64,000 nucleotides of DNA from Mobula hypostoma (Eukaryota). A model generated the notes under the pieces. It saw only the letters and a program-made list of their open reading frames with translations, ran no database searches and was not told where the DNA came from. A program made the position numbers and the translations under genes. The stretch is from the NCBI RefSeq assembly GCF_963921235.1, contig NC_086108.1, forward strand, positions 11,284,001 through 11,348,000, read 5' to 3'. Shown in pieces: positions 35,215 through 64,000 of the stretch (positions within the stretch are counted from its first letter, which is position 1; each line of letters begins with the position of its first letter).

Positions 35215-36247
35215 GGTTTTCCATTCCTTACTCTGGTTCCCCTCTCACCCCTTCTCCTCTCCTCACCTGCCTATCACCTCCCTCTGGTTCCCTCCACCTT
35301 CCCTTTCTCCCATGGTCCACTCTCCTCTTCTATCAGATTTCTTCTTCTTCAGCCCTTTACCTCTTCCACCTATCACCTGCCTGCTTCCCACTTCATTCCC
35401 TCTCTTCTCCACACACCGACCTCTCCCCTCACCTGGTCTCACCTATCATCACCCAGCCTCTCACTTCAACCCCTCTCTCTCTCATACCTACCTTCCCCCT
35501 CACCTGGTCTCACCTATCACTCCCAGCTTCTCACTTCATCCCCTCTCTTCCCACCCACCCACCTTCCCCCTCACCTGGTCTCACCTATCACCACCCAACC
35601 TCTCACTTCAATCCCTCTCTCTCCCACACCCACCTTCCCCCTCACCTGGTCTCACCTATCATCACCCAGCCTCTCACTTCAACCCCTCTCTCTCTCATAC
35701 CTACCTTCCCCCTCACCTGGTCTCACCTATCACTCCCAGCTTCTCACTTCATCCCCTCTCTTCCCACCCACCCACCTTCCCCCTCACCTGGTCTCACCTA
35801 TCACCACCCAACATCTCACTTCAATCCCTCTCTCTCCCACACCCACCTTCCCCCTCACCTGGTCTCACCTATCACCTCCCAGCTTCTCACTTCAACCCCT
35901 CTCTTCCCACCCACCCACCTTCCCCCTCACCTGGTCTCACCTATCACCACCCAACCTCTCACTTCAATCCCTCTCTCTCCCACACCCACCTTCCCCCTCA
36001 CCTGGTCTCACCTATCACCACACAGCCTCTCACTTCAACCCCTCTCTCCCCATCCACCCACCTTCCCCCTCACCTGGTCTCACCTATCACCTGTCTGCTT
36101 GTACTCCTTGCCCTCCCACCTTATTCTGGCTTCCTTCCCCCTTCCTTTCCGGTCCTGGTGAAGAGTCTTGCCCTGAAACATCGACTGTTTATTCCTCTCC
36201 ATAGATGCTGCCTGACCTGCTGAGTTCCTCCAGCTCTTTGTCTGTGT
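35215..36247 (+). mobile_element. Penelope-type 3' terminal region containing an expanded minisatellite
   Basis: Pyrimidine-rich tail ending in gtcctggtgaagagtcttgccctgaaacatcgactg...catagatgctgcctgacctgctgagttcctccagc, the same terminus found beside the GIY-YIG fragment at ~37310-37410. Confidence 0.65.
35420..36091. repeat. 71-bp minisatellite, ~9.5 units
   Basis: cacctggtctcacctatca recurs at 35430, 35501, 35572, 35643, 35714, 35785, 35856, 35928, 35999 and 36071. Confidence 0.95.
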
Positions 36248-48249: not shown

Positions 48250-50057
48250 AGATCAGAAATAACATCTCCACCTTGCAGACAATCAACACTGGCACACCTC
48301 AGGGGTGTGTGTTTAGCCCACTGCTCTACTCTCTCTAAACCCAAGGCACAGCTCAAATGCCATCTATAAATTTGCCGTTGGCACAGTCTCAGAAGGGGTA
48401 GACAGGAGTGAGATAGATCAGCTAGTTGAGTGGTGTCACTGACATACAGTGGGGGCTTGGAACAGACCCAAGCGCAAGACGCAGACACTGAAGTACTAGG
48501 GACAGGACTAGGATATAGGTTGAGGGGTAGGACATGGACACGAAAACTGGGAACCCGGAACAGGACTACATAAGAGAGCTAGGAGCCCGGGCTTGGACTC
48601 CGAGCCAGAGATTGGCCAAAAACCCAGAACCTGGGTCTTGCCTCTGGCTCGGACCCCAGAACTAGGCAAGGATGAGACTTGGCTGGCAGGCAGGACGAGG
48701 CTTGAGACTAGAGACTTGAGGCGAGACTGGAGGCCGGAGATGTGAGACGAGGCTTGGCTAGAGACTTGGGGCCTTGAAGCTCCTCCTGGGCAGGGCGCGG
48801 TACTCCACCCAACGGAGGCAAGGAACAGAAAGGGACGGAACCAACTGTAGGTAACGGCAATACGGCCTGGCTTACCCGACGGATGCAAGGGACAGGAAGG
48901 GACAGAACCAACCGCAGGGTAACGGCAAGACGGCCTGACTTACTTGGCAGAGACAAAGGACAGGAAGGGAGCTAGGTACAGGGTGACTCCAAGACAAGAC
49001 TACAGGTGAAATGAGGTGAGAGCTACCGGCAAGACAAGGCAGGGCTTCAGGTGAGGAAACAGAAGGCAGGGGAAGGGATACAAGGAGTAAGGACAAGAAC
49101 AATCCAGCAGCCACGGCCTGGTCTCTGGAGGTATTTATACAGCCAGTCCCAATGAGAATCAGCTGCCTCAATTAGAGCTCAACAGGAACAGAAACAGGGT
49201 AGCAAGGGTCGATGGACCAGACAGTGAACCGGAATGCGGACTTCATGGACCGGACCATGCCAGTCACAGCAACAACCTTGCATTCTACATCGGTTAGACC
49301 AAAGAACTGATTGTGGACTTCAGAAAGGATAAGACAAGGGAATACACACCAGACCTCATAGAAGGATCAAAGTGGAAAGAGTGAACAATTTCAGTTCCTG
49401 GGTGTCAATGTCTCTCAGGATCTAACGTGGACCCAACGTATCAATGCAGCTATAAAGAAGGCAAGGCAGTGGCTATGTTTCATTAGGTGTTTGAGGATAT
49501 TTGCTATGTCACCAAAGACCTTTGCAAATTTCTACAGATGTACTGCGGAGAGCATTCTAACTAGCTGCATCACCGTCTGGTATGGTGGGGGTGGGGGTGA
49601 TGAGGGTGGTTGCTGCTGCTCCGGATCAAAGTGAGTTGCAGAGGGTTGTAAACTGTGTCAGCTCCACCATGGGCACTAGCCTCCCCAGTACCCAGGACAT
49701 CTCCAAGGAGTGAAGCCTCAAAAAAAAAATGGTGTCCTTCATTAAGGACCCCCATCACCCAGGACATGCCTTCTTCTCATTGATACCATCAGGAAGGAGG
49801 TACAAGAGCCTATAGGGACACACTCAATAATTCATGAACAGCTTCTTCCCCTCTGCCATCCAATTCCTGACTAGACATTGAACCCATGAACACTACCACA
49901 CTATTTTTCTTCTCTTTTTGCAATACTTATTTAATTTAACTATTTAATATACTTACTGCAATTCACACATTTTTATATATTGCATTATACTGCTGCCGTA
50001 AAACACCATCAAATTTCACAACGTATGCTGGTGATATTAAACATGATTCTGATTCTG
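48250..50057 (+). mobile_element. Rex/Babar LINE 3' part, split by a solo LTR
   Basis: ggcacacctcaggggtgtgtgtttagcccactgctctac; gagtggtgtcac|agcaacaacc rejoins across the insertion; (gattct)n tail. Confidence 0.8.
48440..49262 (-). mobile_element. Solo LTR (823 bp) with 5-bp TSD GTCAC; same family as the 61574-63998 LTRs
   Basis: TG...CA termini; gtcac at 48435-48439 and 49263-49267; long shared blocks such as acagacactgaagtactagggacaggactaggata; minus-strand TATAAA at 49134-49139. Confidence 0.9.
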
Positions 50058-61100: not shown

Positions 61101-62730
61101 GGATTTCTCTGTCCTCCTTTAGGAAAACAGACAGAGAAAGGTTCTATAATTTCTCTGCCTTTTTCTAATTTCTCACTATTGAATACTTATGAATATTTGC
61201 CTCAGTCTGTAAAAGACAAACGTTACTTTGACTGAATGATTTCTTTTTACACACCTGCAGAAACATTCCCACCCTCATTCTATTTCTGATTAGATTAACC
61301 TTACATTCTCGTTTTGCATTTCCTGATCACTGTCTTGATTATCTTGTCCGAAGTCTGCAACCCGCCCAGGCCACATACTGGCTGGTTATTTGAGGGGATA
61401 GCATATGACAGTCCTTTATGCCAAAGATTGCCTCTGATTTCATCATTAATGAACTGCTGAACGAAATTTCATTTTTTACCTTAAAGCAACGTATTATTCT
61501 GCACTATAAATTACTTTATAAATGTTATCTATTACCAGTAGCCATTAATCTAGCCCTCCATAGATCAACACATTGTGATAAGGAGGTGGCTGGGAATGGA
61601 CCCAAGTGCAAGACACAGACACTAAAGTACTAGGGACAGGACTAGGATACAGGGCGATGGCAAGGAGATAGACAGGAAAACCAGGAACCTGGAACAGGAC
61701 TGGACAAGGGAGCTAGGAGCCCGGGCTTGGACTCTGAGCCAGAGACTGGACAAGGACCCAGTACCTGGCTCTTGCCTCTGGCTTGGACCCCAGAACTAGG
61801 CAAGGATGAGGCTTGGCAAGCAGGCAGGGCGAGGCTGGAGTGTGCAGGCTTGAGGGTAGAGGCTAGAGGCTTGGCAGGAGGCAGGAGGCTGGAGTCTTCA
61901 GGCTTGAGGCTAGAGGCTAGAGGCTTGAGGTGAGGCTTGGCAGGAGGCAGGAGGCTGGAGGCTAGGTAGGAGACTGGAGTCTTCAGGCTTGAGGCTAAGC
62001 AAGCTCCTCCTGGGCAGGGCGCGGATCACCACCCGACAGAGGCAAGGGACAGGAAGGGACAGAACCAACTGCAGGTAACGGCAAGATGGCCTGGCTTACC
62101 CGATGGGGGCAAGAGACAGGAAGGGACAGAACCAACCGTAGGTAACGGCAAGACGCCCTGGCTTACCTGAGCGGAGGTAAGGGACAGGAAGGGAGCTAGG
62201 TACAGGGTGGCTCCAAGACAAGACTGCAGGCGAGATGAGGCGAGAGTTACCAGCAAGACAAGGCAAGGCTTCTGGCAAAGCAAGGCCAGACAGAACTTCA
62301 GGCGAGGCGAGAGTTACCGGCAAGACAAGGCAGGGCTTCAGGCGAGGAAATAGAAGGCAGAGGAAGGGATACAAGGAGTAAGGACAAGAACAATCCAGCA
62401 GCCACGCCTGGGTCTCTGGAGGTATTTATGCAGCCAGCCCCAACGAGCATCAGCTGCCTCAATTAGCTCAACAAGGACAGAAACAGGGTAGACAGGAAAA
62501 CCTGGAGCAAGGGTCGATGGACCGGACCGTGAACCGGAATACGAACTTCACAGACCGCACCATGATAGGAGCGCCCCTCCCCCCCCCCACCACCCCATGG
62601 GAGTCTCTTGGTGACCAAACAGGGTATCCAGACTATGGACGACCCGGGCGGGTGGGAGAGTATTAAACCGAAAGGAACCCTGGGTGGCAAGAGGAAAGAG
62701 ACAGTGTCTATGTCGCTGGGTCCATGGTGG

Positions 62731-62742
62731 GCTGGATTGTTC
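62731..62742 (-). other. Putative self-priming PBS GAACAATCCAGC
   Basis: Abuts the 5' LTR; its reverse complement lies inside the LTR about 25 nt downstream of the TATA-like box. Confidence 0.75.
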
Positions 62743-63000
62743 TGTCATAAGGAGGTGGCTGGGAACGGACCCAAGTGCAAGACACAGACACTGAAGTACT
62801 AGGGTCAGGACTAGGATACAGGGCGATGGCAAGGAGATAGACAGGAAAAGCAGGAACCTCGAACAGGACTGGACAAGGGAGCTAGGAGCCCGGGCTTGGA
62901 CTCTGAGCCAGAGACTGGACAAGGACCCAGTACCTGGATCTTGCCTCTGGCTCAGACCCCAGAACTAGGCAAGGTCGAGGCTTGGCAGGCAGGCAGGATG

Positions 63001-63497
63001 AGGCTGGAGTCTTCAGTCTAGAGGCTAGAGGTGAGGCTTGGCAGGAGGCAGGAGGCTGGAGTCTTCAGTCTAGAGGCTAGAGGTGAGGCTTGGCAGGAGG
63101 CAGGAGGCTGGAGTCTTCAGTCTAGAGGCTAGAGGTGAGGCTTGGCAGGAGGCAGGAGGCTGGAGTCTTCAGTCTAGAGGCTAGAGGTGAGGCTTGGCAG
63201 GAGGCAGGAGGCTGGAGTCTTCAGTCTAGAGGCTAGAGGTGAGGCTTGGCAGGAGGCAGGAGGCTGGAGTCTTCAGGCTGGAGTCTTCAGGCTAGAGGCT
63301 GGGCGGGAGGCTGGAGTCTTCAGGCTTGAGGCTGGGCGGGAGGCTGGAGTCTTCAGGCTTGAGGCTGGGCGGGAGGCTGGAGTCTTCAGGCTTGAGGCTG
63401 GGCGGGAGGCTGGAGTCTTCAGGCTTGAGGCTGGGCGGGAGGCTGGAGTCTTCAGTCTTGAGGCTGGGCGGGAGACTGGAGTCTTCAGGCTTGAGGC
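63001..63497. repeat. VNTR inside the 5' LTR: ~5 x 52 bp then ~6 x 33 bp
   Basis: aggctggagtcttcagtctagaggctagaggtg.. with period 52 (63001, 63053, 63105...); gaggctgggcgggaggctggagtcttcaggctt with period 33 from ~63295. Confidence 0.92.
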
Positions 63498-64000
63498 TAG
63501 GTAGGCTCCTCCTGGGCTGGGTGCGGATCACCACCCGACGAAGGCATAGGACAGGAAGGGCCCAACCACAGGTAACGGCAAGACGGCCTGGCTTACCTGG
63601 GCGGAGGCAAGGGTCAGGAAGGGAGCTAGGTACAGGGTGGCTCCAGGACAAGACTGCAGGCGAGATGAGGTGAGAGTTTCCAACAAGACAAGGCAAGGCT
63701 TCTGGCAAAGCAAGGCCAGACAGAACTTCAGGCAAGGCGAGAGTTCCGGCAAGACAAGGCAGGGCTTCAGGCGAGGAAACAGGAGGCAGAGGAAGGGATA
63801 CAAGGAGTAAGGACAAGAACAATCCAACAGCCACGCCTGGGTCTCTGGAGGTATTTGTGCAGCCAGCCCCAATGAGCATCAGCTGCCTCAATTAGAGCTC
63901 AACAAGAACAGAAACAGGGTAGACAGGAAAACCTGGAGCAAGGGTCGATGGACCAGACCGTGAACTGGAATACGGACTTCACGGACCGGACCATGACACA

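Follow-up and report, generated by a model that had tools for sequence, protein, structure and literature searches.

The stretch of Mobula hypostoma DNA analysed here (contig NC_086108.1, positions 11,284,001 to 11,348,000 of the forward strand; 64,000 nucleotides (nt), hereafter the window) ends with a minus-strand element of 2425 bp, in which two long terminal repeats (LTRs) enclose a core of only 175 bp (Table 1). Re-reading of the sequence confirmed the coordinates and the layout proposed by a first-pass annotation, which had described this mini-element as a self-priming parasite mobilised by a sushi-like helper. Over ungapped columns the two LTRs agree at 93.7% of positions, and internal tandem repeats account for their difference in length; within the 5′ LTR, the spacing from the TATA-like box suggests a unique 3′ region (U3) of about 169 bp, the remainder being repeat (R) and unique 5′ region (U5). 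As had been described, the core contains a five-codon MDPAT frame with its stop (ATG-GAC-CCA-GCG-ACA-TAG) and a G-rich tract. The element is also flanked by a 5-bp target-site duplication (TSD), but the exact “cacat” expected past the window edge was wrong, since the plus strand reads CAAAT there and the two copies (ATTTG/ATGTG on the element strand) agree in 4 of 5 letters. The copy is decayed: its 3′ LTR begins with TA instead of TG, and the 5′ LTR carries one change each in the TATA-like box and the putative primer. The 12-mer GCTGGATTGTTC, which the annotation had singled out, lies without mismatch in the 3′ LTR and in a solo LTR of the same family and with one mismatch in the 5′ LTR, and its complement forms the primer-binding site (PBS). 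These four matches in the window compare with 0.41 expected, a number reached in none of 100 shuffles.

Table 1. Parts of the element and a related solo LTR, in positions of the window.
Feature	Position	Strand	Remarks
Two-LTR element	61574..63998	-	2425 bp
5′ LTR	62743..63998	-	1256 bp, TGTCA...TGACA; ends and repeats read from sequence
TATA-like box, 5′ LTR	63851..63858	-	ACAAATAC in this copy; ATAAATAC in most copies
Predicted self-primer, 5′ LTR	63817..63828	-	would be transcript nt 1-12; +1 position inferred
U5 arm of predicted U5/leader stem (pretzel outer duplex)	62765..62793	-	
PBS GAACAATCCAGC	62731..62742	-	abuts the LTR's CA; A/G site at position 5
Leader arm of predicted U5/leader stem	62702..62725	-	overlaps the 5-codon MDPAT-stop remnant 62708-62725
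PBS and gag-start remnant	62674..62742	-	homologous to the first ~70 nt of the family A internal region
Possible pre-chromodomain linker remnant	62638..62660	-	weak; not above shuffles in most pairs
Putative integrase-chromodomain frame remnant, last ~55 nt	62568..62623	-	includes G-rich polypurine tract 62574-62596
Core	62568..62742	-	175 bp
3′ LTR	61574..62567	-	994 bp; TATA-like ATAAATAC 62422-62429; 12-mer 62388-62399
TSD, 3′ copy ATGTG	61569..61573	-	read from sequence
TSD, 5′ copy ATTTG, last two letters	63999..64000	-	remaining three beyond window edge
Solo LTR, same family	48440..49262	-	823 bp; TSD GTGAC/GTGAC; 12-mer 49097-49108

Copies were searched for in the 3.48-Gb genome, where the candidates of first-look listings are not to be equated with copy numbers. 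The core search gave 571 such candidates, and all 40 that were scored match at 85–91% identity apart from the self hit; a unique core, named beforehand as an outcome that would speak for a one-off deletion, was thus not found. An LTR head follows the core in all 30 fetched core loci and an LTR-end hit precedes it in 29; two loci (L023 and L024) form one tandem array. So as not to select on the core, we also searched for the exact LTR-end/PBS/ATG junction, which occurs 66 times in the genome (46 in 44 newly fetched loci, 15 in the first loci and 5 via a core match in the core search) and always leads into a short core, never into a long or coding interior. At the 46 checked junctions the 3′ LTR follows after 136–183 bp in 44, after 398 bp in one, and was not found in one. 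Both element ends were read in 49 of 74 rows; apart from seven flagged as tandem, 29 of the other 42 show a TSD of 5/5 and 11 one of 4/5, and the flanks of the two misses look like those of array members. Cores have a median length of 164 bp, LTRs one of 1078 bp (547–3370 bp, n = 120), a spread that results from the growth and shrinkage of tandem repeats of 7, 33 and 52 bp (62972-63498 and 61808-61996 in the present element), and LTR pairs are 92.9% identical in the median (87.2–97.2%). The LTR head gave 2678 first-look candidates; six of the 30 best loci adjoin a core (two being the copy in the window), 20 appear to be solo LTRs, 16 of them with a perfect TSD, and four were left unassigned. 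LTR-like sequence also occurs in assembled contigs under five organism labels, and one contig of 307 nt (X2) spans both LTR/core junctions; such contigs cannot show ends, strand or level. The mini-elements are a dispersed multi-copy family and not an accident, and their TSDs show 5-bp duplications at integration.

In all 55 5′ LTRs compared, the site that pairs best with the copy's own PBS is the 12-mer (G-U allowed), with 12/12 pairs in 44 and 11/12 in 11, while the second-best site reaches 8–10; in the present copy, 11 Watson-Crick pairs are joined by one G-U. The 12-mer indeed lies downstream of a TATA-like box, at a distance of 30 nt from the first base of ATAAATAC and not the roughly 25 nt given before: this spacing occurs in 117 of 128 LTRs, seven have 28–29 nt, and four have no box. 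Family A, a gag-bearing family of the same genome, has ATAA at -30 in 26 of 30 LTRs as read by eye. In vertebrates, the distance from TATA box to start of RNA polymerase II (Pol II) transcription is usually about 30 nt. The PBS begins with GAA right behind the LTR's CA (71 of 74 rows), which agrees with the previously noted non-tRNA start, as pairing with the CCA end of a tRNA needs TGG. In a comparison with tRNAs, the longest run against the PBS was 7–8 pairs, in a set of 11 distinct predictions that represent few tRNA types and include some calls running over locus ends, too small to count as a control; separately, a dense tandem cluster of tRNA genes lies on C90 at about 4.02–4.33 Mb (L159–L182). 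Across gag-bearing families, covariation of primer and PBS was found, the two changing together. Their PBS was located in 25 of 38 gag-bearing rows (21 distinct), and 17 of the 21 have a 9–11-pair complement at a TATA-spaced position; for L032, L046 and L053 the complement was found in a follow-up look, and none at such a position was found for L043, L050 and L051. Primer positions 3–4 read TG in the mini family, CA in families A–D and TC in family E (one copy), opposite CA, TG and GA in the PBS, and position 6 is T in families B and C, opposite A.

In yeast Tf1, the primer consists of the RNA's initial 11 bases, is cut by RNase H (PMC7175516) and sits in a three-duplex “pretzel” (bioRxiv 10.1101/2022.12.06.519325). 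A comparable pretzel with both flanking stems is predicted for the mini family. TGTC just past the primer could extend the primer duplex by 4 bp with GACA at the LTR end in 48 of 55 copies, and a duplex between U5 (-51 to -23) and leader (+17 to +40) has a median energy of -35.9 kcal/mol versus -15.3 kcal/mol after shuffling, being better than all 20 shuffles in 53 of 55. In 32 sequences of six groups, 83% of the cells of the U5/leader stem are paired and nine pairs show two-sided change, compared with 30–40% paired in slid controls; as the structure was drawn from the mini family, this test favours the mini family. The leader arm of this stem would also explain why the gag start has been retained.

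A further trace of the primer may be preserved within the PBS itself. Primer position 8 is T in nearly all LTRs of the mini family (C in 3 of 128) and lies opposite PBS position 5, which is A or G, with about half A in every subfamily. At 79 junctions, found with both dinucleotides left open in the search and counted by hand from the table, the PBS dinucleotide is CA in 41, CG in 26, TG in 10 and other in 2, whereas a CpG 24 nt away reads CA in 13, CG in 38, TG in 26 and other in 2. The CA:TG ratios differ (Fisher p=1e-5; 39:6 at the PBS when tandem neighbours are removed), pure CpG decay is rejected, and a model of half A plus decay fits (p=0.16). In family A, where the primer mostly has C, the identical context GAACGATC shows no CA excess (CG 25, TG 11, CA 6, other 2 of 44). 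Subfamilies were analysed with 70 aligned copies after four rows had been dropped (one duplicate array member, one mis-indexed, two atypical). Non-CpG markers define them, 86 of 231 pairs being linked at p<0.01, including pairs that span the PBS, while the PBS letter is unlinked to them: it needs 27 changes on the tree against 22.5±2.1 when shuffled, shows no association below p=0.025 with the non-CpG marker columns, and is distributed as A:G 14:6, 12:10 and 15:13 in three clusters. As the marker columns helped to build the tree, the tree favours their clustering; the pairwise tests are independent of it. Among the 25 least decayed copies A:G is 12:13, the median CA fraction at other CpG columns being 0.12. 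From these counts, the A/G split is likely the trace of a primer that was copied into the PBS. Copies with the C-type primer have eight exact LTR matches genome-wide, one with a PBS nearby, and are too few to serve as a control. Three mini copies (L015, L020 and L021) form a long-branch clade that holds two of the three C-type primers.

The core had been regarded as a mere set of cis signals; instead, comparison with coding elements reveals a patchwork of the gag start and the integrase tail with polypurine tract (PPT) of a chromodomain-bearing, sushi-type Gypsy family of the same genome, here family A. Gag-bearing elements were sought with DUF4939 (150 loci scored, 30 read). Among 31 gag loci compared, family A gave the best alignment for the first ~70 nt of the core, which match its PBS and gag start with 75–81% identity over 70–80 nt in the best pairs; the last ~55 nt align to the end of its integrase frame and the PPT. 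Both pieces exceed shuffles in most pairs. In the window copy, the first scores 44–65 against shuffle maxima of 31–38, with no gag frame surviving in it, and the second is marginal, as opposed to clear in L102, L003 and L029. The middle 25 nt were considered as a pre-chromodomain remnant and rejected: the position is right, the score is not above shuffles. Natural frames in several copies of family A contain Retrotrans_gag, DUF4939, RVT_1, RNase H, Integrase_H2C2, rve, SH3_Tf2-1 and Chromo (Pfam), i.e., a chromodomain integrase and the gypsy domain order. Its Gag has one PDB hit, PEG10 (E 6e-7), which is related to sushi-ichi (PMC4340606), and the best PDB matches of its reverse transcriptase (RT) are of the Ty3 type. 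A sushi-like candidate for the postulated partner thus exists in the genome, and its role as helper is suggested by shared cis signals; we regard family A as the best candidate for both parent and helper.

Several family A loci deserve mention in their own right. One copy (L062/L107, C45:37331917), picked by motif, has a PBS with the two letters of the mini family and a primer of the family A type, possibly by chance. It was rejected as a coding element with a mini-type PBS, since copy, LTR and primer are those of family A and two chance changes would explain it. At C45:44193000-44202999 (L046/L108), a mini solo LTR lies in reverse orientation inside the 5′ LTR of a family A element. In a family A derivative at C21:136402900-136411878 (L115), the interior measures 2.7 kb and lacks the part that encodes the chromodomain; the junction there is similar to the mid-portion of the mini core, and the locus is possibly an intermediate in the reduction. 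Nine of the loci L128–L137 and L143 represent yet another Gypsy family with a chromodomain, whose LTR start is unrelated.

Taken together, the element is very probably a decayed copy of a multi-copy, non-coding LTR family with a sushi-derived core, which is likely self-primed by its first 12 nt and likely borrows Gag and Pol from a full-length relative. This supports the interpretation of the first-pass annotation, and none of the three outcomes named there as speaking against it turned up. Pol II would start at the G of the 12-mer, 30 nt past the TATA-like box, and the 5′ end of the RNA is predicted to pair with the PBS about 900 nt away, the pretzel being completed by the 4-bp extension at the LTR end and a U5/leader stem of about 23 bp. 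By analogy with Tf1, the RNase H of the helper would then free the primer, a step to which the A excess in the PBS lends indirect support, RT would copy U5-R and jump, and the G-rich PPT would prime the plus strand. Copy statistics suggest that during plus-strand synthesis the primer is copied into the PBS; the U-G wobble at position 5 would then yield about half A and half G progeny. Integration produces 5-bp duplications, as the TSDs show, and later recombination between LTRs likely gives rise to solo LTRs and tandem arrays. Going further, we lean towards viewing the family as a protein-free LTR parasite of a vertebrate, stripped down to the self-priming pretzel and the PPT, with hundreds of germline copies that record the copying of the primer; this would point to sushi-type self-priming in a vertebrate in vivo, with helper enzymes acting in trans.

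Several observations weigh against this interpretation or parts of it. We infer the transcript's 5′ end at the 12-mer, as assembled contigs cannot show starts. No poly(A) signal was found in the LTRs, AATAAA occurring in a single 3′ LTR at the TATA position, so that R and the 3′ end are undefined. Nested folding, which cannot model both helices of a pseudoknot jointly, picks one or the other: of 10 minis, six form the primer duplex and four the U5/leader stem (1 and 3, respectively, of four family A sequences). Primer position 9 is A in 11 of 30 family A copies, and the PBS has the matching T in only 2 of the 11; this misfit could be accounted for if R 1–12 of the progeny stem from the source's 3′ LTR and the primer from its 5′ LTR. 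Similarly, L016 and L104 carry a primer variant in both LTRs and no matching change in the PBS, and source copies in all subfamilies must have kept G. Finally, the LTRs of the mini family do not align to those of family A beyond their ends, so that the true parent or helper may instead be a sister family of family A.

The poor templating in family A and the persistence of G, which requires long-lived G-type source copies, would be in line with a scenario in which self-priming is right and the A/G split results from strand-biased CpG decay, a mutation hotspot or gene conversion. PBS position 5 is itself part of a CpG, and several other CpG columns are lopsided too. Yet the four lopsided columns examined one by one (203, 211, 239 and 966; two others are lopsided as well) track subfamilies, unlike the PBS site, the CA fraction at 28 other CpG columns has a median of 0.19 and a maximum of 0.33 against 0.52 at the PBS site, and neither the same context in family A nor the least decayed copies behave as decay would demand; we consider this scenario rather unlikely. 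A stronger competitor concerns the origin of core and enzymes: the parent or helper could be a related chromovirus family (e.g., family B), or else an element that has died out or escaped sampling and that carried the LTR of the mini family. Besides the lack of LTR alignment, this view draws on another chromodomain family (L138, L141, L150) with a similar PPT and LTR start, L138 also matching the U5 end of the mini family, and on the limited number of loci read (30 of 150 scored for gag and 30 of 150 scored for the chromodomain, the latter 30 being devoid of a mini-type LTR). On the other hand, the gag-start piece is closest to family A, the LTR-pair identities of family A (87.9–92.7% in the best blocks of seven elements) overlap those of the mini family, and mini LTRs adjoin no coding interior at any of the 66 junctions nor in the 30 LTR-picked loci, four of which were those left unassigned. 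We hold such a different parent or helper to be a real possibility, albeit not the one we would choose.

Two further explanations carry much less weight. If the primer were a tRNA, a fragment of one or, in trans, the RNA end of the helper, the LTR complement would be a relic; half-tRNA priming is known in other groups (PMC6317226), and our comparison covered only part of the host tRNA set. Nevertheless, the PBS starts with GAA, primer and PBS of the mini family jointly differ from family A at two adjacent positions, none of 30 core-picked copies has the family A letters in its PBS, and the A excess points to the U of the family's own 12-mer, which makes this option highly improbable. Tandem arrays, in turn, might suggest a one-off deletion product or spread by duplication at the DNA level, an idea already refuted, as the core is shared, 40 of 42 copies have distinct 5-bp TSDs and the loci are scattered over many contigs; its remaining probability is negligible.

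Apart from the primer, the LTRs show some additional features. Repeats of 67 bp in their R/U5 part (62031-62194 and 48807-48970, minus strand) each contain a GGTAAG motif resembling a splice donor, which, in an LTR lacking AATAAA, could influence how the RNA is processed or make solo LTRs a source of first exons; as carriers of a TATA-like box, the solo LTRs, for which the 2678 LTR-head candidates provide a first-look figure, are also potential promoters for the host. Open reading frames of 195 amino acids through the 5′ LTR repeats and of 66 amino acids over the core are taken as chance frames in low-complexity sequence. Elsewhere, the window contains a 17-bp satellite (1-24021; about 1415 copies, strong A skew) and a 71-bp minisatellite (35367-36091; 10 copies).

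In terms of function, the mini family resembles the Tf1/sushi group of Ty3/gypsy chromoviruses (Tf1, sushi-ichi; V-clade of GyDB), with which it shares a PBS complementary to the 12-mer behind a TATA-like box, the predicted pretzel and a PPT, and to which family A is linked by its chromodomain integrase and PEG10-like Gag. Unlike these elements, it has no coding capacity, a core of about 160 bp, about 900 nt of R and U5 between primer and PBS, a fixed U-G wobble and a countable trace thereof in its copies. A related form of PBS inheritance is described for human and simian immunodeficiency viruses, where an imperfect Lys3/Lys5 primer leads to a heteroduplex PBS and 50:50 progeny (PMC4549124); in the mini family, by contrast, the element would be primed by the end of its own RNA, and it is in germline insertions that the record can be read. 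In the literature available to us, self-priming was dissected experimentally in yeast Tf1, and for vertebrate sushi elements the idea draws on RNA structures obtained by prediction. If true, a mutation trace that can be counted and that indicates which primer was in use would add genomic evidence for self-priming beyond complementarity alone, and counts of A and G types could put self-priming to the test wherever the primer of an LTR family is imperfect.

Regarding its architecture, the mini family resembles terminal-repeat retrotransposons in miniature (known as TRIMs) and “long-TRIMs”, including plant TRIMs, PbTRIM, the cestode TRIM and biv-TRIM, in its short non-coding PBS-PPT core, 5-bp TSD, solo LTRs and tandem arrays (PMC6934838; PMC10886601). 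The label “TRIM-like” given earlier is appropriate for this non-coding layout of two LTRs, PBS, PPT and TSD, which is that of a strict TRIM. It does not extend to size, as strict TRIMs stay below 1 kb (1.5 kb in wider usage) with repeats of 100–250 bp, compared with LTRs of ~1.1 kb and a total of ~2.4 kb here, nor to the tRNA-complementary PBS which the strict definition demands (PMC6934838). Large retrotransposon derivatives (LARDs), at more than 4 kb and with a long non-coding interior, are equally remote from a median core of 164 bp, and the family rather falls among the non-autonomous elements of 1.5–4 kb that form an unnamed part of the continuum (PMC13570524). Non-autonomy is shared by the LTR elements Helenus, Ajax and Cassandra (TRIMp3). 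Among Helenus there are families of fish that Gypsy elements mobilise, and vertebrate Helenus use tRNA primers (PMC10886601); TRIMp3 elements combine a tRNA- or 5S-derived Pol III promoter with tRNA primers, whereas an Rfam scan of 61500-64000 for a small-RNA-derived LTR gave a single chance match (E 0.68). A self-priming non-autonomous LTR element of vertebrates or sharks was not found in the literature searched; Repbase, Dfam and subscription papers lay outside this search and may hold it as an unnamed repeat. The mini family adds a vertebrate, tRNA-independent case to the few TRIM-like elements of animals, and offers a natural deletion map of the cis signals, comprising 70 nt of gag start that would double as a stem arm, the PPT and the LTR ends. 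In summary, the family combines what appears to be the mode of action of a Tf1/sushi element with the architecture of a TRIM, while lying outside the strict definition of the latter.

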